DNA of 64,000 bases from Archangium sp. (GTDB lineage: Bacteria > Myxococcota > Myxococcia > Myxococcales > Myxococcaceae). A model generated the notes under the pieces. It worked only from the letters and a program-made list of their open reading frames with translations, had not been told where the DNA came from and searched no databases. The stretch is from NCBI GenBank assembly GCA_047600485.1, contig JASGKS010000001.1, positions 6,912,259 to 6,976,258 on the forward strand, read 5' to 3'. Both the position numbers and the translations under genes were made by a program. Positions 3,817-39,800 of the stretch are shown here, one piece after another (positions within the stretch are counted from its first letter, which is position 1; every line of letters starts with the position of its first letter).

Positions 3817-3859
3817 CCCTCTCCCCGCTGTCGCAGGGAGAGGGTGCTGAGCGCTCAGC
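3817..3859. repeat. REP-like palindromic element (CCCTCTCCCC-N-GGGAGAGGG) plus second hairpin GCTGAGCGCTCAGC between convergent genes
   Basis: Two inverted repeats read directly from the sequence; same family as the copies at 4679, 18284, 30163 and 31139. Confidence 0.5.
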
Positions 3860-4676
3860 GGCGCTTGATCAACAGCACTGCGCCGAAGACTGCTCCGAGC
3901 GTGAGAATGATGGTCGCTCCGCTCGCGACGTTGAGGTGGTAGCTCGCGATGAGACCGATGACCGAGGTCACCACGCCGATGATCAACGCCCAGGCTGCGA
4001 CTCCCGAGAGCGTCTTGCCGAGCATGCGCGCGGTCGCCGCGGGAATGACGATGAAGCTCGAGACCAGCACCACGCCGACCGTCTTCACGCTGACCACGAT
4101 GATGAGCGCCGTGAGGCCGAGCAGCAGATAGTCGAGCGCCGCGACGGGAACTCCGGACAGCGCGGCGAGGTCGGGGTCGAACGTCGCGTACGCGAGGCGT
4201 GACCAGGTCGCGAGCAGCGCGACGAGCGTGATGAGCACCACCACCGCCACCATCCACATGTTCTGCGGAGAGATGGCGAGGATGCTGCCGAAGAGGACGG
4301 TTTCGACGTTCACCGGTTTGGCGTTCACCGAGCGCAGGCCGAGGAAGAGGACGCCGAGCGCGAAGCTGACGGAGAAGAAGACTCCGGTGGCGACGTCGCC
4401 GCGCAGCTTCCCGCGCCGCAGCACGTAGACGATGCCCATCGCCACCGCGAGCGTGAACGGGAGCGAGACCCAGCCGGCTTGATCGACGCTGACTCCGAGG
4501 AAGAGGCCGAGGCCCAGACCGCCGAAGGAAGCGTGCGCGAGGCCATCGCCGAGGAAGGACAGGCCTCGCTGCACGACGAAGACGCCGATGAGCGCGCAGA
4601 GGCCGGCGACGGCGGCTCCGGCGACGAGGGCGCGCTGCATGAACTCGAGTGCGAGGGGCTCGGTGAGGAAGTTCAT
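3855..4676 (-). CDS. znuB: Metal (Zn/Mn) ABC transporter permease
   Basis: Polytopic membrane protein with a TroC/ZnuB-like sequence (MNFLTEPLALEFMQRAL...); last gene of the SBP-ATPase-permease operon. Confidence 0.7.
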   Translation of the reverse strand: MNFLTEPLALEFMQRALVAGAAVAGLCALIGVFVVQRGLSFLGDGLAHASFGGLGLGLFLGVSVDQAGWVSLPFTLAVAMGIVYVLRRGKLRGDVATGVFFSVSFALGVLFLGLRSVNAKPVNVETVLFGSILAISPQNMWMVAVVVLITLVALLATWSRLAYATFDPDLAALSGVPVAALDYLLLGLTALIIVVSVKTVGVVLVSSFIVIPAATARMLGKTLSGVAAWALIIGVVTSVIGLIASYHLNVASGATIILTLGAVFGAVLLIKRR

Positions 4677-4678
4677 GT

Positions 4679-4718
4679 TTGACCCTCACCCCGACCCTCT
4701 CCCTCGCGGGAGAGGGGG
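4679..4718. repeat. REP-like palindromic element copy (GACCCTCACCCCGACCCTCTCCC-tcgc-GGGAGAGGG)
   Basis: Lies in the intergenic gap between the ATPase and permease genes. Confidence 0.5.
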
Positions 4719-4727
4719 ACATGGACG

Positions 4728-5516
4728 TCAGTCTTCATCGGGGGCCGCCTTGTGGTCTTGCGGAGGCGCGAACGCGAGCGCGGTCAGTCGGTCGTGTCCG
4801 AGCAATTCATCGGGCAAGCCCCACGCCACGAGTCTTCCGGCTTCGAGGTACACGATGCGCTCGGCGGTCTTGGTCACCGCCGCCACGTTGTGAGTGACGA
4901 GAATCGCCGCGATGTGGTCGCTCTTCGAAATGCCCGCGAGCAGCTCGAGAAATTCGCCGCGGCCCTTCACGTCGACGCCCGCGGTCGGCTCATCGAGGAT
5001 GAGCAGTTCCGGGTTGGTCACCATCGCGCGCGCGAGGAACACGCGCTGGGTTTCGCCACCCGAGAGCCCCGCGAGTGGCTTGTCGATGAGCTTCTCGCCG
5101 CCCGTCTTCACCAGCGCGAGTCGCGCCTTCTCGCGTTCTTCGGCCGTCACGCGCAGCGGCCACTTGCCGCGCAGGTTCGCGACGATGAGCTCCACTCCGG
5201 TCGCGGGGAAGTCTTGAGCGAACGTCTTGCGCTGCGGCACGTAGCCGATGGCGCCGCGCGTGTTTTCGAGCGGAACTCCGTTCACTTTGATTTCACCGCG
5301 CGTGCGCTTCATCAGCCCGAGGGCCGATTTGAGGAACGTGCTCTTGCCTGCTCCGTTGGGGCCGCAGAGACAGACGAATTCACCTTTGGGAATGTAGAAG
5401 GTGATGCCGTCGATGAGCGTGCGGTCGTCGACGTCGACGCCGAGGTTCACCACGTCGAGCACGCGCGGCAGCGACGGGTCGGGCACGGTGCCCTTGAGCG
5501 TCGTCGTCTCGCTCAC
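4728..5516 (-). CDS. znuC: Metal ABC transporter ATP-binding protein
   Basis: Walker A GPNGAGKST, ABC signature LSGGE, Walker B ILDEP. Start overlaps the SBP stop (ATGA). Confidence 0.8.
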   Translation of the reverse strand: MSETTTLKGTVPDPSLPRVLDVVNLGVDVDDRTLIDGITFYIPKGEFVCLCGPNGAGKSTFLKSALGLMKRTRGEIKVNGVPLENTRGAIGYVPQRKTFAQDFPATGVELIVANLRGKWPLRVTAEEREKARLALVKTGGEKLIDKPLAGLSGGETQRVFLARAMVTNPELLILDEPTAGVDVKGRGEFLELLAGISKSDHIAAILVTHNVAAVTKTAERIVYLEAGRLVAWGLPDELLGHDRLTALAFAPPQDHKAAPDED

Positions 5517-6460
5517 TGCAGCGCCTTCTCCAGCACCGCGGCGTTGGAGCGCAGCAGCTTCTCGTAGCTCTCGACGCCCGGCGTGCCACCGACCGGGTCG
5601 AGCTCGAACAGCGGCAGCTTCGCTTGATCAGCCACGGTCTTCGCCGGAGCACGGTCGAGCTGCGGCTCGCTGAAGAGCGCAGCGGCGCCGGTCTTCTTCA
5701 CCGCCTCGAGCACCTCGGCCATGTACTTCGCGGTCGGCTCGCGGCCGGGGAACGGCTCGATGACGGCGGCGAGCTCCAGCTTGTAGCGCGCGATGAAGTA
5801 GCCCATCGAGGCGTGGAAGGTGACGAGCTTGCGCTTGGTCCACTTCGCTTGCTGCGCGTCGATTTCGGCGTGCAGCGTGGCGAGCGACTTCTTCACTTCT
5901 TCTCCGCGCGCCTTGAAGCCGTCGGCGCCGGCGGCATCGAGCTTGGTGAACTCGGCGACCAGCACGTCGACGGCGGTCTGCATGCGAACCGGGTCGAGCC
6001 AGAAGTGCGGGTCCATCGCGCCGGGCTCTTCGCCTTCGTCTTCGTCCTTCGCGACCTCGGCGGCGGCGGCCTCACCGACGTGGTCTTGCGTGAACGGCTG
6101 CGGGCTGCACTTCGGCGCGAGCTCGAGCGACTGCACGTTGGGCGACGCGGTCTTCACCAGCTTCTCGGCCCACTCGTCCATGCTGAAGCCGGAGAGCACG
6201 ACGAGCTTCGAGTCGGCGACGCGCGCGACCTCTTTCGGCGTGGGCTCGTAGCCGTGCTCCGATTTTCCGGGCGGGAGAATGAGGACCACGTCGAGCCGGT
6301 CACCGGCGACGCGCTTGGCGATGTCGTGCAGCGGGAAGATGGAGACGGCGACGCGCGGCTTGGCGGCGGCTGCGGGCTCAGACGGTTTGTCGGTCTTGTC
6401 TTTGGGACAAGCGGTGAGGACGACGGCTCCGAGCGCGGCCAGCAGGAGGGGTCGGGACAT
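5513..6460 (-). CDS. znuA: Periplasmic metal-binding lipoprotein (TroA/ZnuA cluster A-I SBP)
   Basis: Lipoprotein signal LLLAALGAVVLTAC; acidic/His loop DHVGEAAAAEVAKDEDEGEEPGAMDPHFWLDP. Confidence 0.7.
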   Translation of the reverse strand: MSRPLLLAALGAVVLTACPKDKTDKPSEPAAAAKPRVAVSIFPLHDIAKRVAGDRLDVVLILPPGKSEHGYEPTPKEVARVADSKLVVLSGFSMDEWAEKLVKTASPNVQSLELAPKCSPQPFTQDHVGEAAAAEVAKDEDEGEEPGAMDPHFWLDPVRMQTAVDVLVAEFTKLDAAGADGFKARGEEVKKSLATLHAEIDAQQAKWTKRKLVTFHASMGYFIARYKLELAAVIEPFPGREPTAKYMAEVLEAVKKTGAAALFSEPQLDRAPAKTVADQAKLPLFELDPVGGTPGVESYEKLLRSNAAVLEKALQ

Positions 6461-6475
6461 GGGCGCGCAAACTAC

Positions 6476-7681
6476 TCACTCCATGCCGACCGTGTAGCGG
6501 TACTTCGGGAGCGGGGCGTTGGTGGATTCCTCTCCGTCGTAGCGGAGCTGCGGGTCGGCGCGGGAATGCTCGACGTTCTTCACCAGGGTCTTCAGCGTCT
6601 TCACGTCGTCGTCGCTGAAGCCGGTCTCGCGCACGATGAGTTGGTCGAGCTTCGAGAGCAGTGACGCGTTCTTCGTGAACCACGGCACGTCGGTGCTCGA
6701 CAGTGAGCTCTGCGAGAGATTGAGCACGCGCAGCGTCGGCGGCAGACCGGTCTGCGCGAGGAGTTCGAGCAGCGAAGTCGTCGAGGCGAAGTTGGTGAGC
6801 GTCAGGGTTTCGAGCGGCGACTTCACGAGATTGCGCAGCGCGGAGCCGAACTCGTTCGGCCAGTTCGCTCCCTCGGAGTAGCCGGTGTCGCCCTCGTCTT
6901 CGGGGAAGCTGTCGAACGTGATGTACGAGTCGGTGTCGTCGACGTGATTGACGGTCCACTCTTCGTTGAGGCGCAGCTCGAAGTGCTTCAGCTTCGGGAG
7001 CGTCGCCTGCCCGAGCATGTCGCACGCTTCGCACGGCTCGACGTCGCCGAAGTTCTGACCGGCGAGGCGCAGACCTTGAAGAGTGAAGGACTCGAGGAGC
7101 GGAGCGTTGATGGCGCCGAGGGTGAGCTGGCGCACATCGGCCGTGACGAGCTTGAGCGAGCGGAGTGATTTCCAGAGCGGAGTGAGGGCGCCGAAGTCGA
7201 CGAGGTTGTTGGCCGGGTCGAAGTCGCGCGAGGTGAGGAGCGTGACCTGCTCGGCGCGCCCGTCGATGAGTTCGAGGGCCGGCGGCGAGCTGCTCGCGAG
7301 GTTCGTGATGAGGTCGTCGAGCTCGATGATTCCAGGAGCCATCGGAACGGCGACGACGCTCAAGGTCTGCAGCCGCTCGGAGCGCGGGTTGTCGAGCACC
7401 AGCTTCACGACGTCGACGAGCGTTTCGGCGCGGGTGGCGCGCACCGTGGCGCGGTCGATGAAGCCCCAGCGCCAGTCGAGCTTCACGTTCGCTCCGACCT
7501 TGCCGAGGAGCTCGGGCCCGAGGAACGCGGAGCCGTGCTGGATGAGCCACTCGTTCTGTTTCGTCTCGTCGCCGGCGTTCACCAACATGATGAATTCGCC
7601 GAGCAGGTCGCCCTGTTGCTGGAGCGCGTCGGCGTAGACGAGCCATTCAGAAGCGGGTGCGTCGGAAGGAGGAGCGCGCAT
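6476..7681 (-). CDS. Leucine-rich-repeat protein with N-terminal TIGR02996-like repeat-companion motif (WLVYADALQQQGD)
   Basis: Motif identified from memory of the Gemmata/Myxococcus domain family. LRR-like L-rich body. Start taken at MRAPPSD. Confidence 0.6.
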   Translation of the reverse strand: MRAPPSDAPASEWLVYADALQQQGDLLGEFIMLVNAGDETKQNEWLIQHGSAFLGPELLGKVGANVKLDWRWGFIDRATVRATRAETLVDVVKLVLDNPRSERLQTLSVVAVPMAPGIIELDDLITNLASSSPPALELIDGRAEQVTLLTSRDFDPANNLVDFGALTPLWKSLRSLKLVTADVRQLTLGAINAPLLESFTLQGLRLAGQNFGDVEPCEACDMLGQATLPKLKHFELRLNEEWTVNHVDDTDSYITFDSFPEDEGDTGYSEGANWPNEFGSALRNLVKSPLETLTLTNFASTTSLLELLAQTGLPPTLRVLNLSQSSLSSTDVPWFTKNASLLSKLDQLIVRETGFSDDDVKTLKTLVKNVEHSRADPQLRYDGEESTNAPLPKYRYTVGME

Positions 7682-7731
7682 GGTGGCGCAGCCTACCGAG
7701 CAATGTCGGCCCCGCATGCGATGGGGTGGGC

Positions 7732-8370
7732 ATGCACAAACTGATGAGGTCGTGGGTGGCGATGCAGCAGGCTCTGCGCGCGGTCGACAGCGTGAACCGT
7801 TTCTGGGCGAAGTCGTTGGGGCTCAACCCTGAGGACGTGCTGCTCCTGATGTTGCTCGCGAGGGAGGAGCACACCCTCACCTCGCTCGGAATTGCGACCG
7901 GACGGGTGCGGCAGCAGGTGCATCGCAGCTTGTTCCGGCTCGAGCGCAGGCATGTCGTCGAGGCCGCGTCGTTCGCGCGTCGAGGGCGCGTCAGCCATTG
8001 GCGGCTGACTCAGTACGGTGGGCGGATGGTGCGCTGCCTCGAGCGACGCATGGAGCTGTGGGAGCGAGAGCTCGAAGGGCGCGTGAACGTCGAGACGCTG
8101 GTTCACGAGATGCGTGGTGTGTTGCAGACGCTCGTGAATCGAAAACTCGATGGCTACTTCGCGGGTCTGTATCTGCCGCACGAGGTGGGGACCGACCCGA
8201 ACCTCGAGTTCCTTCGCGAGGCGATGGAGTTGAGGGAGGAGTTCAGTGTGCTCGAGGAGCGCGCCTCACCCGTCGAGTCGCGGAAGGAGCTTGCTCGGCA
8301 GCACGTCGAGGCGACCGATCTTGCGGAGGGGAATGAGTCGGCGGCGGCGTGGGAGCGGCTGTGGAACTGA
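7732..8370 (+). CDS. MarR-like winged-helix transcriptional regulator (hypothetical)
   Basis: LLMLLAREEHTLTSLGIATGRVRQQVHRSLFRLERRHVV resembles the MarR wHTH. Start chosen at ATG 7732 to avoid overlap with the convergent gene. Confidence 0.45.
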   Translation: MHKLMRSWVAMQQALRAVDSVNRFWAKSLGLNPEDVLLLMLLAREEHTLTSLGIATGRVRQQVHRSLFRLERRHVVEAASFARRGRVSHWRLTQYGGRMVRCLERRMELWERELEGRVNVETLVHEMRGVLQTLVNRKLDGYFAGLYLPHEVGTDPNLEFLREAMELREEFSVLEERASPVESRKELARQHVEATDLAEGNESAAAWERLWN

Positions 8371-8525
8371 TGTGAGTGGCACGGCTCTGCCGAAAACTGC
8401 ATTGAGGACGATGGGGTCGCTGTTCTCCGCGCCGTGCCAGACGATGCGCGAGCCTCTCGGCTTCGGGCGACTGGCTCCTCGCGCCGTGTGCCACTTCTGG
8501 CTCGAATTGGTGCTTCATCAGCAAA

Positions 8526-8650
8526 GCTGACAGTGGCGTGCCCCGTCGCGACCCCGAGATTCTCATCAGCAAAGCTGACAGTGGCGCAGCACCGCGCGAC
8601 CCCGAGATTCTCATCAGCAAAGCTGACAAGTGGCGCATGACGATCACGCC
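8526..8650 (+). repeat. Tandem 48-bp repeat array A (2.6 copies; unit CATCAGCAAAGCTGACAGTGGCG-N9-GCGACCCCGAGATTCT)
   Basis: Exact 48-nt period: unit starts at 8526, 8574 and 8622. Confidence 0.85.
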
Positions 8651-8755
8651 TTACCGGGATCCGATGACGCCGCCGCCGAATGAGAGCCGGCGAAAAGGGT
8701 GACGGCACGTAAGCAAGAAGAGCGTGACGTCGTGGTGTCCCAGACTGGTCGCACT

Positions 8756-8920
8756 GTCAGCTTTGCTGATGAGAATCTCTGGGTCGCGCCGAGGCGCGTC
8801 ACTGTCAGCTTTGCTGATGAGAATCTCGGGAGCGCGACCGGGCGCACGACTGTCAGCTTTGCTGATGAGAATCTCGGGGTCGCGCCGGGCAGCGCCACTG
8901 TCAGCTTTGCTGATGAAGCG
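8756..8920 (-). repeat. Tandem 48-bp repeat array B (3.4 copies, reverse complement of array A)
   Basis: Unit starts at 8756, 8804, 8852 and 8900. Conserved core of about 39 bp and a variable 9 bp. Confidence 0.85.
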
Positions 8921-9071
8921 ACCGCCAATTCGACCGCAGAACCGGCACACGGCCCAAAATCGCCAGGCGCTCGAAGCCGAGAGGCTCGTGCATCGTCTGG
9001 CACTGCGCGGAGCACTGAAACACCATCGTCCTCACTGCAGTTTTCCGCCGCGCTCATGCCACAGTCGGCGC

Positions 9072-10406
9072 GTGAGCGATCCACGAGAGACCATCGTCAC
9101 CGCCCAGAAGCAGCACGCGGAAGGCAAGACCCAAGACGCCTACCGAACCCTGCGCGGAGTCTTCTCCGGAGTCGGCGAATCACTGCGCGACGACGCGCTC
9201 TTCTTCGACGCGATCTCGTTGCTCGCCACCCTGAGCCACACCTTCGGCGCCACGAAAGTCTCCGCCGCGCTCAAGCAGTGCGTCGCCAAACGTGACGACA
9301 CGCAGATGCTCTACGACGCCGCGTACCAGCTCTACGAGGAGCAGCAGTTCGCGCCCGCCTCCGCACTGCTCTTCCGCGCGAACCGCCTCGCACCCGGCCA
9401 ACCAGGAATCATCGCCGAGCTCTCGAGCGCGCTCGAAGCCCAGCTCCGCTACGGCGAAGCAGCGCTGGTGCTCGAACAATCGAACACCGCCGAAACAGAA
9501 CCACTCTGCGCGTACCTCGCAGGCTTCAACTGGCTGATGACCGGCGACCTCGAGCGCGCGAGTTCGCACTTGAAGCGGCTCGCGACCGAGACCGACGAGC
9601 GCATGGTCTTTCAGCGCAACATGCTCGCCGGCATGGTGGCGCGAGCCGAAGCCATGCGCGCAGCCGGAATCTCCCTCGAAGGGCTCGCGCTCACCGCCTG
9701 GCAAGGAGCCATCAACGGCACCGTGCTCCTCCACGAATCACCGCACGGCTACGAGCAACCGATGCACGGCCGCTACGCCTTCGTCTCCGACAGCGCCGGG
9801 CTGCAGCGCGAAGGGCTCGAGCGATTGAAGGTGGTGTTGAGCGCGACGAACTCCGCTCCCGCGCGCATCGTGAGTGCTCCGGGCCGCGAGAGTCGACTGC
9901 TCGGCCTCGCAGCGGCGAAGACGCTCGGAGCGCCCGTCGCCGAGTGGACGCCCGGCTCCGAGAAAGGTGCCCTCGTCGTCGCGTGGACGCTGGAGAGCGT
10001 TCCCACCGACGAGCTGCTCAAGGCGTTGTCGACGCACGCTCCGGCGAACCGGCTGTTCGTGCACGCGTCGTCGTGGGTCGAACCGTTCGGCTACGCGCCC
10101 GACGTGACGACGCTGCTGCACCAGACCATCACGCACCCGTACGCGGGCGGTGCGCTGCGCGTCGACCCCGCGACGCAGAAGGTGACTCGCAGTGAACCCG
10201 ACACGCGCGCTGATGAGGTGCTGGTCGAGGAAATCGTCGCCGCGAAGATCTCGGACCCGAGCAAGACGTCGCTCGAACACGTCACCAGAGTGACTGGCGC
10301 GCTCAGGAGCGTCGACGCTTCGCATCGCGCTGGGCTGTTCGCCCAGAGCGGCCGTAGGCTTCGTCAGCGCGCTGGCGGCCCGGTGTTGAGCAATCGGTTT
10401 CTATGA
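9072..10406 (+). CDS. Hypothetical helical (TPR-like) protein
   Basis: Open frame with high GC3. Start uncertain (GTG 9072, after the palindrome). Stop overlaps the GH5 start (ATGA). Confidence 0.45.
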   Translation: MSDPRETIVTAQKQHAEGKTQDAYRTLRGVFSGVGESLRDDALFFDAISLLATLSHTFGATKVSAALKQCVAKRDDTQMLYDAAYQLYEEQQFAPASALLFRANRLAPGQPGIIAELSSALEAQLRYGEAALVLEQSNTAETEPLCAYLAGFNWLMTGDLERASSHLKRLATETDERMVFQRNMLAGMVARAEAMRAAGISLEGLALTAWQGAINGTVLLHESPHGYEQPMHGRYAFVSDSAGLQREGLERLKVVLSATNSAPARIVSAPGRESRLLGLAAAKTLGAPVAEWTPGSEKGALVVAWTLESVPTDELLKALSTHAPANRLFVHASSWVEPFGYAPDVTTLLHQTITHPYAGGALRVDPATQKVTRSEPDTRADEVLVEEIVAAKISDPSKTSLEHVTRVTGALRSVDASHRAGLFAQSGRRLRQRAGGPVLSNRFL

Positions 10407-11764
10407 ACGCGTTTGACCCTCACCCCAACCCTCTCTTGCTTCTGCTGCTGCTGGTGGCTTGCGTGCCGCCGAAGACCGAGCCACCTCCGGCGCGCACGTT
10501 CTCGGTGAGCAACGGCTTCATCCGCGACCCCGACGGACGCGCGGTGATTCTGCGCGGCGCGAACGTGAGCGGCCGCCACAAAGACCCGCCGTACTTCGAC
10601 TTCCACGAAACACCCGACTTCGAACGCATGCGCGACGAGTGGGGCATGAACTCGGTGCGCTTCCTCATCTCGTGGGCCGCGCTTGAGCCGACGCGCGATG
10701 CGTACGACGACGCGTACCTCGACGAAGTGGTGCGCAAGGTGAAGCTCGCGACCGACGCCGGGCTCCTCGTCTTCCTCGACATGCACCAGGACCTGTACGG
10801 AGTCGGTTTCCCCGGCGGAAACGGCATGCCGCGCTGGACCTGCGACGAGTCGAAGTACGCGAGCTACCGCCCGGGCACGACGTGGTTCTTCAACTACCTC
10901 TCCGCCGAAGTGACCGCGTGCTTCGACGGCTTCTGGGGCAGCCGCGACTTGCACGCGAAGTACGCCGCCGCCTGGAGCCACGTCGCGCAGCGCTTCGTCG
11001 ACGCACCACTCGTCATCGGCTTCGACCCGATGAACGAGCCGTACTGGGGCTCGTATCAACCCGACTTGCTCGAGCAGGGCCGCCTCGCGAGTCTGTATCG
11101 AGACGTCATCGCGGCGGTGCGCGTGCATCGACCCGACTGGCTCGCGTTTCTCGAGCCCGTCTCGAGCCGCAACATCGGCCTGCCCTCGAAGTTGCCGACC
11201 TTCAGCGAAGGCAACGTCGTCTACGCGCCACACTCCTACGACGGCACCGCAGAGCAGGGTATGGGCTTCGACCCGACCCGCCGCTCGGTGCTCATGGAAC
11301 AAATCGCGAAGATGCGCACCGAAGCCGACGCGCGCAACGCCGCGCTCGTGCTCGGCGAATACGGCGGCATGACCAACACGCCGGGCATCAGCGAATACAT
11401 GGACGCGGAGTACGACGCCGCGGGGCTCCAGCGCGCCGGCGCGATGTATTGGGATTACGGAAAGAACGACGGCTACGCGCTGCTCTCCGCCGATGGCACG
11501 CCGAAGGCCGACCTGCTGGCGATGGTCGCGCGCCCGTACCCCGCGCGCGTCGCGGGCGAACCCGGAGCGTGGGCAGTCGACGGCGACACGTTCACCTTCC
11601 GCTACGCGCCGAATTTCGCGCTCACCGTTCCCACCGTGATTCGCGTCCCAACGGGCACGTTCACCGCGACGTGTGACGGCTGCACGGTCGAAGCGAAGAG
11701 CGGAGCATTCGAGCTCACGCCGACGAGCGGCGTCACCGAAGTGCACTTCACGCTGACGCGCTGA
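10403..11764 (+). CDS. Glycoside hydrolase family 5 (endoglycanase/endoglycoceramidase-like) lipoprotein
   Basis: GH5 blocks NSVRFLISW, LVFLDMHQD and GFDPMNEP (catalytic NEP). Lipobox LLLVAC. Confidence 0.7.
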   Translation: MNAFDPHPNPLLLLLLLVACVPPKTEPPPARTFSVSNGFIRDPDGRAVILRGANVSGRHKDPPYFDFHETPDFERMRDEWGMNSVRFLISWAALEPTRDAYDDAYLDEVVRKVKLATDAGLLVFLDMHQDLYGVGFPGGNGMPRWTCDESKYASYRPGTTWFFNYLSAEVTACFDGFWGSRDLHAKYAAAWSHVAQRFVDAPLVIGFDPMNEPYWGSYQPDLLEQGRLASLYRDVIAAVRVHRPDWLAFLEPVSSRNIGLPSKLPTFSEGNVVYAPHSYDGTAEQGMGFDPTRRSVLMEQIAKMRTEADARNAALVLGEYGGMTNTPGISEYMDAEYDAAGLQRAGAMYWDYGKNDGYALLSADGTPKADLLAMVARPYPARVAGEPGAWAVDGDTFTFRYAPNFALTVPTVIRVPTGTFTATCDGCTVEAKSGAFELTPTSGVTEVHFTLTR

Positions 11765-18283: not shown

Positions 18284-18318
18284 CCCTCTCCCCGCAGGGG
18301 AGAGGGTTGGGGAGAGGG
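18284..18318. repeat. REP-like palindromic element copy (CCCTCTCCCCGCAGGGGAGAGGGTTGGGGAGAGGG)
   Basis: Lies 3' of the histidine-kinase gene. Confidence 0.5.
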
Positions 18319-30162: not shown

Positions 30163-30203
30163 TCCCTCTCCTTGCGAAGCGGGGAGAGGGTCGGGGTGAG
30201 GGG
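30163..30203. repeat. REP-like palindromic element copy (CCCTCTCC-ttgcgaagc-GGGGAGAGGG-TCGGGGTGAGGGG)
   Basis: Lies 3' of the GNAT-like gene. Confidence 0.5.
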
Positions 30204-31100: not shown

Positions 31101-31138
31101 TTCCGCGCGATGAAGAGGGTCGTGGTGAGAGGCGAGCT

Positions 31139-31174
31139 CCCCCTCTCCCGCGAGGGAGAGGGTCGGGGTGAGGG
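31139..31174. repeat. REP-like palindromic element copy (CCCCCTCTCCCGCGAGGGAGAGGGTCGGGGTGAGGG) between convergent genes
   Basis: A partial second copy lies upstream at 31112..31136. Confidence 0.5.
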
Positions 31175-36870: not shown

Positions 36871-39800
36871 ATGCGTTTCCAGTTCGCCGTCTTCCCGCTC
36901 GCGCTCGCGTTCGCGGTGTCGTTGTCCGCCTGTTCTCCCGCGTCGCAGAAGTGTTCGGCGTCCACCTGTCCCAACGGTTGCTGTGACGCTTCAGGCTCGT
37001 GTCAGGCCGGCTCGTCGGGCCTCGCGTGCGGCGCGGCCGGAGCGATGTGCACGCAATGCCAGCTCGGAGAAATCTGTACCTTCGGACAATGCAGCTCCAT
37101 CACCGGCAACGGCGGTGGCGGCGGCTCGAGCGGCGGCGGTGGCGGAACGGGTGGCGGCTCGACTGGCGGCGGAAGTGCGGGCGGCGGTAGCGCGATGGGC
37201 GGCGGCAGCGCGATGGGCGGCGGCAGCGCGATGGGCGGTGGCAGCGCGATGGGCGGTGGCGGCGGCTCGACTGGTGGCGGCGGCGGCTCGACCGGCGGCG
37301 GCGGCGGAATGCTCGACCCGTGCGCCGGCACGCTGACTCTGTGCGGCACGCGCTGTCTCGATCTCTCCGCTGACCCCGAGAACTGCGGCACCTGCGGCCG
37401 CGTGTGTGGCCAGGGCGAGGTGTGCAACCGCGGCTCGTGCAACGTGCTCCCCAACGACTGCACCATGCAGAGCAACGGCTGCGGCGCGGGCTACTACTGC
37501 GACCCCGTCAGCAAGCACTGCATGACCGGCTGCCGACTCACCACCGACTGCCCGATGGGAGCGACCTGCAGCATGGGCACCTGCTCGTGCGGCCCGGGCC
37601 AACACGCGTGCGGCCAGGAATGCGTGGCTGACGACGCCGCGACCTCGTGCGGCTCCCGCTGCGGAGCGTGCCCGCAACCTGCGCACTCCACCGCGACCTG
37701 CGTCGCCGCCTCGTGCGACTTCACGTGCGCCAGCGGCTACGTGCTCAACAGCGCCATGTGCGTCGACGTCGATGAGTGCGCCACCAACAACGGCGGCTGC
37801 AGCGCGAACGCGGCGTGCACGAACACCGACGGCTCCCGCACCTGCGCGTGCAACGCGGGCTTCACCGGCGACGGAGTGACCTGCACCGACATCAACGAGT
37901 GCGCGAGCAACAACGGCGGCTGCGACGTGAACGCGATGTGCACCAACACCCCGGGCTCGCGCACCTGCACCTGCGCCACCGGCTACACCGGCAACGGCAC
38001 CTCGTGCGTCGACATCGACGAGTGCGCAGCGGGCAACGGTGGCTGCGCGACGAACGCGACCTGCACCAACACTCCGGGCGCGCGCACCTGCGCGTGCAAC
38101 GCGGGCTTCACCGGCAACGGCCTCACGTGCACCGACGTGAACGAGTGCCTCACCAACAACGGCGGCTGCGCGGCGACCACCGCGGGCGGCGTGTGCACCA
38201 ACACTCCGGGCACGCGCACCTGCTCGTGCGCGACGGGCTTCACCGGCGACGGCTTCACCTGCACCGACGTGAACGAGTGCCTCACCAACAACGGCGGCTG
38301 CGCGGCGACCACCGCGGGCGGCGTGTGCACCAACACCGCCGGCTCGCGCACCTGCTCGTGCAACACCGGCTTCACGGGCAACGGCTTCACCTGCACCGAC
38401 ATCAACGAGTGCCTCACCAGCAACGGCGGCTGCGCGGCGACCACCGCGGGCGGCGTGTGCACCAACACCTCGGGCTCGCGCACCTGCTCGTGCAACACCG
38501 GCTTCACCGGCGACGGCTTCACCTGCACCGACGTGAACGAGTGCCTCACCAACAACGGCGGCTGCGCGGCGACGACTGCTGGTGGCGTGTGCACCAACAC
38601 CGTCGGCTCCCGCACTTGCTCATGCAACACCGGCTTCACGGGCAACGGCTTCACCTGCACCGACGTCAACGAGTGCCTCACCAACAACGGCGGCTGCGCG
38701 ACGACGGCGAACGGTGGCGTGTGCACCAACACCGTCGGCTCACGCACCTGCTCGTGCAACACCGGCTTCACCGGCGACGGCTTCACCTGCAGCGACGTCA
38801 ACGAGTGCCTCACCAACAACGGCGGCTGCGCGGCGACCACCAGCGGCGGCGTGTGCACCAACACGCCGGGCTCGCGAAACTGCACCTGCGCCTCGGGCTG
38901 GACGGGGAATGGACTGACCTGCACCGACGTCGACGAGTGCCTCACCAACAACGGCGGCTGCTCGGTGAACGCGACGTGCACCAACACGCCGGGCTCGCGG
39001 AGCTGCGCGTGCAACTCCGGCTACGCGGGCAACGGCATCACCTGCACGCCGAACGGAGACACCTGCGCGGCGCCGGTGACGTTGACGCTCAACACGCCGT
39101 TCTCCGGCTCGACGGTGGGCGCGGTGAACGACTACGCGACGGCGCTCTCGCAGCTGTGCGATGGCGCGACGCTGCCCGGCTCCGACACGGTGCACGTCTT
39201 CACGCCCGCGACGACCGGCTCATTCCGTCTCGGCATCACCGGCTTCGCGGGCATTCGCGTGTGGCTCGCCCCCACCTGTGGAGCGGCAGCGAGCTGCGCG
39301 GGTCTGGCGCCGGAATACAGCTCGAGCACCGCGCTCAACTTCCGCGGCACCGCGGGCGTGCCGGTGTTCATCGTCGTCGATTCAACGAGCAGCCCGGGCG
39401 CGTACACCTTGAACGTCACGTCCATCGCGACGGTGGCGAACGAGACGTGCGCCAACGCGGCACCGCTCACGCTCGGCACGCCGGTGACGGCTTCGCTCAG
39501 CAACGCCATCAACGACGTGACGCTCCTCGCGTCGTGCGCGAGCCCGCCGTACACGCAGCCTGAGCTCGTCTACAGCTTCACGCCGTCGAGCACCGGCAAC
39601 TACGTGCTGCGCGAGACGACCTCGGCCGACGTGGTGATGTGGGTCGGCACCGGCTGCACCGGCACCTGCGTGCTCGAGACCGATGAGCCGGAGTCGATGC
39701 AGGTCGCGCTCACCGCCGGCACGCAATACTTCTTCTTCGTCGAGCCCTACACGACGGCGACCTCGTTCACGATTTCGCTCGATCAAATCGTCACGCCGCC

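Follow-up and report, generated by a model that had tools for sequence, protein, structure and literature searches.

A palindrome of phased 15-bp sites beside a MarR-like gene of Archangium sp.: putative arrays of cognate binding sites

A 64,000-nt stretch of the genome of Archangium sp. (contig JASGKS010000001.1; "the window" denotes this whole stretch) contains an imperfect palindrome of ~685 bp (8376-9060), which occupies the entire gap between a gene for a MarR-like protein (7732-8370) and a gene starting at ~9072. What is such a structure, and does it belong to one of its neighbours? An earlier note on this DNA had placed the palindrome, correctly, between the MarR-like gene and a hypothetical gene coupled to a GH5 gene (9072-10406/10403-11764), and had proposed that it is a foldback, a miniature inverted-repeat transposable element (MITE)-like element or an array of operators. 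From comparison of the locus with those of its relatives, it appears probable (roughly 0.6) that the palindrome represents two mirror-image arrays of cognate sites, operators or iteron-like, for the MarR-fold protein encoded directly upstream. Thus, the operator array was supported, whereas the foldback or MITE-like role was less so, because neither a target-site duplication nor extra copies in the window were found.

Two inverted arrays, one site per unit

The palindrome is real and far beyond chance. An ungapped inverted-repeat search identified two blocks, 8384-8475/8962-9053 (92 nt, 86% complementary) and 8512-8628/8803-8919 (117 nt, 88% complementary). When 8370-8680 on the plus strand was aligned, with gaps, to 8720-9065 on the minus strand, mean column identity was 83%, which agrees with the ~85% previously given for the arms. 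Instead of the single 2-nt indel claimed for them, the outer parts of the two arms (the heads) differ by indels of 1, 1, and 4 nt. Each arm consists of an outer head of ~140 nt and an inner array of 48-nt units, three on the left and four on the right (Table 1). The inverted-repeat search and Tandem Repeats Finder thereby confirmed both the palindrome and the opposite orientation of its 48-bp arrays. The unique spacer between them also exists, but it is larger than the ~100 bp initially estimated. An assembly artefact or foldback as the source of the palindrome, which the earlier note had named as a possible refutation, is unlikely because the arms are imperfect and because independent assemblies of relatives share the same architecture.

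The 18-mer TCATCAGCAAAGCTGACA is present in seven exact copies in the palindrome (three on the plus and four on the minus strand) and, even when three mismatches were allowed, nowhere else in the 64 kb; shuffled sequences predict 0.05. Every unit contains one 15-bp pseudo-palindrome of 6-3-6 geometry, GTCAGC-TTT-GCTGAT (GTCAGCTTTGCTGAT), which is exact in 7 of 7 copies and absent from the remainder of the window. Read outward from the centre, a unit is composed of this site, GAGAATCTCGGGGTCGCG, a 12-nt patch differing in nearly every unit, and ACT. The mini-palindromes TCAGC-AAA-GCTGA and GAGAaTCTC, the latter already pointed out in the earlier note, are present in the units. Comparison of the five complete units showed no differences at positions 1-24 and 46-48 but variation at 10 of the 12 positions 34-45. 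Apart from this hypervariable patch, the other 36 of the 48 positions show little or no variation; ~23 constrained nt lie beyond the 15-bp site. As homogenisation alone would leave no single patch spared, the conservation suggests that selection acts on a long footprint and that the units have not merely been homogenised. From centre to centre, 143 bp (about three periods) separate the innermost site of the left arm from that of the right. GC (guanine plus cytosine) content is 0.60-0.66 across the region, with no AT-rich stretch. Third-position GC is ~0.5-0.7 over the palindrome versus 0.8-0.9 or more in the flanking genes (reaching at least 0.8 from about 9084 in the downstream gene); because of this drop across 8376-9060, the palindrome is regarded as wholly intergenic.

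Table 1. Features of the palindrome region and of loci with homologous genes (L numbers); window positions are those of the 64,000-nt stretch. ORF, open reading frame; REP, repetitive extragenic palindrome.
Locus	Feature	Position	Strand	Remarks
Window	Proximal box TGTCGGCCCCGCATGCGA	7704-7721	+	Ends 10 nt before the ATG of the MarR-like gene; candidate primary operator/promoter element
Window	Gene, 212-aa atypical MarR-fold winged-helix protein	7732-8370	+	C-terminal helical extension of ~70 aa
Window	Left head, outer non-repetitive part of left arm	8376-8514	+	86% complementary to right head
Window	Left array, 2.5 x 48 nt, three 15-bp sites GTCAGCTTTGCTGAT	8515-8637	-	Sites 8517-8531, 8565-8579, 8613-8627; 93% matches
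Window	Unique spacer between arrays, ~126 nt	about 8629-8754		8638-8751 between the array limits listed here; without repeat or ORF support
Window	Right array, 3.4 x 48 nt, four 15-bp sites GTCAGCTTTGCTGAT	8752-8916	+	Sites 8756-8770, 8804-8818, 8852-8866, 8900-8914; 88% matches
Window	Right head, mirror image of left head	8917-9060	-	Ends 12 nt before probable start GTG 9072
Window	Gene, 444-aa helical-repeat protein	9072-10406	+	Stop overlaps start of GH5 lipoprotein gene (10403-11764)
L001	Sites GTCAACGAAGGCGAC	2 upstream, 4 downstream of gene		Spacing 49
L002	1 site			Contig edge
L005	Sites of GTCATCAAAGAGGAC type	2 + 2		Spacing 49; second cassette, same genome as L001
L006	2 sites	downstream		Spacing 50; gene 5'-truncated
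L008	6 sites	upstream		Spacing 48/45/48/43/48
L009	2 + 2 sites, convergent	downstream, like window		Spacing 49
L010	2 sites	upstream		Spacing 48
L011, L012	1 site	on stop codon
L013	Convergent pair, ATCATCAAAATTGAC then GTCAATTTTGATGAT	directly after stop codon
L014	2 sites			20 bp apart
L015	Inverted arms	bracketing gene		Third copy before next gene
L016	Same two sites as L014			309 bp apart; close relative of L014
L017	2 abutting sites
L019	Inverted arms	bracketing gene
L020/L021	3 sites per side			Opposite orientation
Relatives	Proximal box TGTCRGACCCNYRTGMGA	L001 9943-9960; L005 6006-6023; L009 4020-4037; L013 693-710; L015 233-250; L016 388-405		Also in others
Window	REP-like GAGAGGGTCGGGGTGAGGG	4683-4701(-), 10417-10435(-), 18300-18318(+), 30184-30202(+), 31113-31131(+), 31156-31174(+)
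Relatives	REP-like GAGAGGGTCGGGGTGAGGG	L001 5780, 10941; L005 401, 2321, 5749		Often just outside cassette arms

Gene and sites across the protein family

Arrays of sites of the type GTCnnC-nnn-GnnGAC are carried by all loci encoding homologues with 46-65% identity. Phased pairs (43-50 bp apart) of the pattern GTCnnCnnnGnn[GT]A[CT] were searched for in about 150 kb of sequence and occurred solely beside the homologous gene, in the window, L001, L005, L006, L008, and L009; shuffled windows contained none. The sites differ by protein clade (GTCAGC-TTT-GCTGAT in the window, GTCAAC-GAA-GGCGAC in L001, and GTCATC-AAA-GAGGAC in L002, L005, L006, and L009), with the outer GTC/GAC triplets retained while the inner bases differ. 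When the units of all loci were aligned, the linkers of 28-35 nt between sites were recognisably homologous, diverged to ~50% identity. Despite this divergence, unit length is 48-50 bp in most of these loci (43 and 45 were also seen), which suggests that the phase of the sites may be under constraint. L008 contains, at 102-365, a higher-order repeat of two alternating unit types with a super-period of 93/91 nt, the first two copies of which are 99% identical; this array seems to have expanded recently. Decayed copies of the gene were also observed: in L006 (6001-6597) it is 5'-truncated and only the downstream sites are retained, and in L007 (4792-4890) a fragment of 33 codons lies between 151-nt direct repeats (4085-4235 and 5406-5556) that are 95% identical.

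The co-occurrence of gene and sites is family-wide. Nearly every homologue with enough flanking DNA, down to ~27% identity, is accompanied by GTCnnC-nnn-GnnGAC sites in inverted sets, and a fitting 15-bp 6-3-6 pseudo-palindrome occurs together with the gene in about 15 loci. At ~27-35% identity, the arrays are reduced to inverted pairs or single sites, located at the 3' end of the gene or bracketing it (L020/L021 with three per side). In the arms of L015, a relaxed pattern scan found no 6-3-6 site, and the one assigned there is our own reading only. Two layouts are apparent. Either the arms bracket the gene (L001, L005, L015, L019, and L020/L021) or the palindrome follows it (the window, L009, L013, L014, L016, and L017), the window being the most expanded example of the latter. 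Deriving the second layout from the first by a single inversion or a circular permutation was attempted and did not yield the observed orientation of the arms. The genes next to the module are different in every locus (ZnuABC, GH5, aminotransferase, hybrid kinase, radical-SAM enzymes, a metallo-beta-lactamase-fold protein, and others). Because these neighbours are never conserved, gene and sites are considered a functional unit. The arms of one locus resemble each other much more closely than they resemble those of other loci, which implies gene conversion or repeated re-duplication.

A further element shared by the family is an 18-nt box (consensus TGTCRGACCCNYRTGMGA), which begins 27-33 nt before the start codon and is found exactly once per locus in 12 of 16 loci, and once in the window. 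It is nearly invariant although the proteins diverge to ~27% identity. Its frame with respect to the ORF differs between loci, which identifies it as an element of the DNA or RNA. It is probably the promoter or the primary operator of the MarR-like gene; it fits no sigma-70, sigma-54, or extracytoplasmic function (ECF) sigma factor consensus. In L015, the box resembles the core of the repeated arm, which is a lead only. The spacer between the two window arrays appears to bear a weak resemblance to the box. Reading the spacer as the leftover of a deleted second gene copy was nevertheless rejected: the resemblance is vague, and L009, L013, L014, L016, and L017 independently show the layout with the gene followed by the palindrome.

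The window protein matches, at 100% identity, an NCBI entry from an Archangium sp. metagenome-assembled genome that carries the annotation MarR family winged helix-turn-helix regulator. It yielded no Pfam match at E ≤ 0.01 (the single match being HVO_A0114 at E 0.081) and no NCBIfam match at standard thresholds. Of 30 family members, 21 matched the Pfam family MarR_2 at E ≤ 0.1 (best 2.5e-7), and the family profile matched MarR proteins among solved structures, best AdcR/ZitR at E 2.6e-7. The family is thus a remote, atypical MarR subfamily. It is small (99 proteins at E ≤ 1e-3, 47 at E ≤ 1e-10, among 1.84 billion representative proteins), unstudied, and at home in uncultured myxobacteria. AlphaFold, supplied with an alignment of 16 sequences, returned a model with a predicted local distance difference test score (pLDDT) of 82 and a predicted template modelling score (pTM) of 0.72, in which a MarR-type core (residues 1-134) is joined by a disordered link to two confident extra helices (159-174 and 180-211). 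The protein therefore has the complete MarR fold, i.e., a winged helix-turn-helix core plus N- and C-terminal dimerisation helices. Invariant in the family are W25, R58, R60, Q61, R65, L67, G85, W90, G96, W110, and P149, among which no catalytic-type set was recognised; the proposed recognition helix, RQQVHRSL, is nearly invariant. AdcR and ZitR are zinc-responsive MarR proteins, while a ZnuABC-type zinc uptake operon is encoded two genes upstream of the window gene (minus strand, 3855-6460; ZnuA 5513-6460, ABC-3 permease 3855-4685). No other locus has Znu genes nearby, and this is why the coincidence of match and operon is probably just that.

The heads are homologous in the window, L001, and L005. 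No ORF is conserved in them across loci. RNAalifold assigned them only -8.9 and -3.1 kcal/mol, with a positive covariation term, and single-sequence fold z-scores disagree between arms and loci, two head folds being near -3. Three explanations for the heads were tried and discarded. Their spacing does not fit decayed units. A sigma-54 promoter was suggested by TGGCAC(G/T), which both window heads carry at their outer ends, but its conservation does not extend to L001 or L005, and its spacing is off in the left arm. A long-range stem between head ends, traced by hand on the alignment, is present in L005 and L001 and not kept in the window.

Binding-site arrays and their alternatives

In size and symmetry, the 15-bp 6-3-6 pseudo-palindrome suits a MarR-type dimer. 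MarR-like dimers, up to 3+4, would load side by side at the fixed 48-bp phase, and their extra C-terminal helices may connect dimers of the same array, join those of opposite arms, or tie them to the box at the promoter of the gene. The looped, cooperative nucleoprotein complex formed in this way would autoregulate the MarR-like gene. As the right arm ends so close to the next gene, the complex could also gate transcription into the hypothetical/GH5 operon, which is a possible target of the arrays. Looping and autoregulation are deemed less probable than the assignment of the sites to the protein itself.

A number of observations weigh against cognate-site arrays. The co-occurrence may reflect co-inheritance of the gene with a site for another factor, covariation of site and protein is anecdotal, and the recognition helix hardly varies whereas the inner site positions do. 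The window protein reaches no Pfam MarR threshold, and neither a promoter nor a terminator was predicted in the palindrome. A phase of 48-49 bp corresponds to ~4.6 helical turns, so that neighbouring sites would not be on one face of the helix, and we know of no MarR system with sites spaced by 48-49 bp. The heads, conserved between arms and over three loci, are left unexplained by an operator model, as is a solo head-like copy (L001 4612-4713; nhmmer E 4.8e-5 with a profile of six heads) that is flanked by two convergent genes, ~5 kb away from the cassette and with no array alongside; it may be the relic of a lost cassette, or the head may be a separate repeat. Nor does such a model require several diverged cassettes per genome, a truncated copy (L006), and a relic (L007), all of which lend the module a selfish flavour.

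Alternatively, the module might be a mobile or formerly mobile cassette, the arms being terminal inverted repeats with subterminal repeats, the bracketed gene the full element, and the palindrome of the window a gene-less foldback or MITE-like derivative that arose by internal deletion and depends on a transposase in trans. In five lineages (L001, L005, L015, L019, and L020/L021), a single small gene is bracketed by inverted arms, one metagenome-assembled genome harbours two diverged cassettes, genomic contexts are all different, and truncated and relic copies as well as the solo head exist. The palindrome also resembles foldback elements and MITEs in its long imperfect inverted arms, inner tandem repeats, short unique centre, and lack of coding capacity. 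However, no transposase or integrase is encoded near any locus examined, and the fold of the protein is plain MarR, its invariant residues (W, R, Q, L, G, P) making no plausible catalytic set. On inspection, the flanks (...CTGATGTGA/GTGGCA... and ...TGCCAC/AGTCGGCG...) contain no direct repeat, i.e., no target-site duplication. The repeat is single-copy in the 64-kb window, head-like profile matches elsewhere are weak, and nothing was matched in plasmids, phages, or viral contigs. The paralogues are old (~50% identity) rather than recent copies. Unlike a foldback element, the palindrome adjoins a gene whose homologues carry the same type of site, and its arms are homologous to those bracketing the MarR-like gene elsewhere; random insertion would not explain its position directly after the cognate gene. 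A mobile cassette is therefore considered unlikely. Equally doubtful is the view that gene, promoter box, and inverted phase-locked arrays together form a self-contained element of an undescribed kind, a binder together with its sites, which maintains and multiplies itself in the chromosomes of Myxococcota and is not a conventional regulator of the genes around it. Such an element would have several diverged copies per genome, relics, and new neighbours each time. Its point would then be the complex of protein and DNA formed on the inverted arms, and this complex might serve as a topological or insulating clamp, as a mark for chromosomal anchoring or segregation without a dedicated nucleoside triphosphatase (NTPase), or as the recognition complex of a mobilisation pathway.

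That the arrays bind a different factor, such as a global regulator or a nucleoid protein, possibly via a second palindrome (GAGAATCTC or GAGGGCCCTC) in each unit, with the MarR-like gene as the regulated target, is rather improbable. It would accommodate the constrained nucleotides outside the 15-bp site, the recurrence of a second short palindrome in the linkers of several loci, and the difference in inner site bases next to an almost invariant recognition helix. But the arrays were found solely beside the family gene in the ~150 kb searched, the 6-3-6 geometry with outer GTC/GAC suits a dimeric winged-helix protein, and the other factor would have had to co-diverge with the arrays of each paralogue, including those of two cassettes in one genome (L001 versus L005). 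A centromere-like or iteron array of an integrated plasmid-like element, comparable to the F sopC partition site or to the control iterons flanking rep in P1 or F, is very unlikely. The architecture resembles both sopC (PMC3177203) and rep genes bracketed by two iteron sets; against this, no locus encodes a ParA-, ParM-, or TubZ-type NTPase or a Rep-family protein adjacent to the array, the neighbours are housekeeping genes, the region is not AT-rich, and the palindrome is located on a 9.4-Mb chromosome. A tblastn search with the protein had no match among 72,556 plasmids and 50,697 phages. Nor did tblastn and blastn searches of PLSDB and INPHARED or a scan of IMG/VR indicate a plasmid, phage, or viral origin, and no defence or phage protein family was matched in PADLOC and PHROGs. 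Least likely are two convergent copies of a small gene, the product of which would be a structured non-coding RNA built of repeated modules or else a peptide in which every 48 nt specify a 16-residue repeat (SSAKLTVAxxxATPRF). The period of 48 in the window is a multiple of 3, one frame is open through both arrays, each site can fold into a 5-bp hairpin closed by an AAA loop, and two of the head folds are comparatively stable by z-score. A coding repeat is excluded by the period of 49 nt in relatives (50, 43, and 45 also occur), and a real duplicated small gene, raised in the earlier note as a possible refutation, is contradicted by frame-shifting indels between the two heads and by the lack of any ORF conserved across loci, so that, with the low third-position GC, the non-coding nature proposed there holds. 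As for RNA, RNAalifold found no consensus for the units on either strand and only a weak one for the heads, Rfam gave 0 matches over the whole window at gathering thresholds and 0 over 7600-9200 at E ≤ 1, a terminator scan gave 0 hits, and no sigma-70 promoter was found. Taken together, MITE, centromere, replicon, and structured RNA are all less well supported than operator arrays. Two other identities were rejected as well. CRISPR arrays consist of direct repeats of 23-47 nt and unique spacers of similar length, usually with cas genes; here, the variable patch is only ~12 nt of a 48-nt unit, the arrays are inverted, and PADLOC matched no defence system. Integron attC sites do not fit either, as the arm ends are without RYYYAAC/GTTRRRY cores, the gene has its own upstream box, and no locus contains an integrase.

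If the arrays are cognate sites, their closest counterparts are MarR-family repressors with palindromic operators beside their own gene, such as MarR-marO, MexR, OhrR, and FabT. In contrast to these, two to six sites form arrays at a fixed phase of 48-50 bp, in two mirror-image sets that bracket the gene or follow its stop codon; the protein has an additional helical segment at its C terminus and stays below the Pfam MarR thresholds, and no divergent target gene is conserved. Iteron sets flank plasmid rep genes (incC/incA around repA in P1, ori2/incC around repE in F). By analogy, a winged-helix DNA-binding protein gene bracketed by two sets of repeated sites may point to pairing or looping of the sets (handcuffing). 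Iterons are ~19-22 bp long at a period of ~22 bp, beside an AT-rich origin with DnaA boxes, whereas the present arrays have a period of 48-50 bp, no AT-rich stretch, no Rep-family protein, and no plasmid setting (no match in PLSDB by protein or DNA). In the F-plasmid sopC site, which adjoins sopB, a 43-bp unit is directly repeated 12 times, and SopB binds a 16-bp inverted repeat within each unit (PMC3177203). Common to both are tandem units of ~45 bp, each with one short inverted-repeat motif, directly downstream of the gene for the (here, predicted) binder; the palindrome differs from sopC in the absence of a partner NTPase, the MarR instead of ParB fold, the chromosomal housekeeping location, the short inverted-pair arrays, and the lack of a plasmid match.

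A protein of the transcription factor type with repeated cognate sites is known as such; the family-wide cis-architecture has, to our knowledge, not been described, and a literature search covering tandem repeats linked to MarR in myxobacteria, as well as inverted arrays of the centromere or iteron type, retrieved nothing relevant. If cognate-site arrays are indeed what the palindrome represents, this MarR-like family would have a fixed cis-architecture unreported for MarR regulators, namely mirror-image clusters of dimer sites at a phase of 48-50 bp, a near-invariant box, and a helical tail that may be able to bridge dimers. It would offer a compact natural system for cooperative, loop-forming repression and for the co-evolution of a regulator with its repeated sites. 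Since the sites differ between paralogues of a single genome, it might also supply orthogonal protein/operator pairs. For annotation, palindromes of this kind or tandem 48-nt repeats beside these genes would be treated as regulatory DNA and not as small ORFs, CRISPR-like arrays, or assembly errors.

Neighbouring genes and other repeats

Immediately upstream of the MarR-like gene, a 413-aa protein is encoded on the minus strand (6476-7717), with weak NCBIfam matches to STM4015 (E 6.7e-5) and the TIGR02996 repeat-companion domain (E 0.0046) and no Pfam match. For the 444-aa protein downstream of the palindrome, Pfam gave a weak helical-repeat match alone; the next protein matches GH5. A dispersed REP-like repeat (GAGAGGGTCGGGGTGAGGG), mostly intergenic, was found six times in the window versus 0.04 expected (Table 1); its copy at 10417 falls within the signal-peptide region of the GH5 ORF. 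Further downstream, 37764-39047 contains an in-frame tandem repeat with periods of 132, 264, and 396 nt (5-7.5 copies, 82-86% matches). Its consensus resembles cysteine-rich modules of the EGF or calcium-binding type (...DVNECLT...), and it is presumably part of a large secreted repeat protein.

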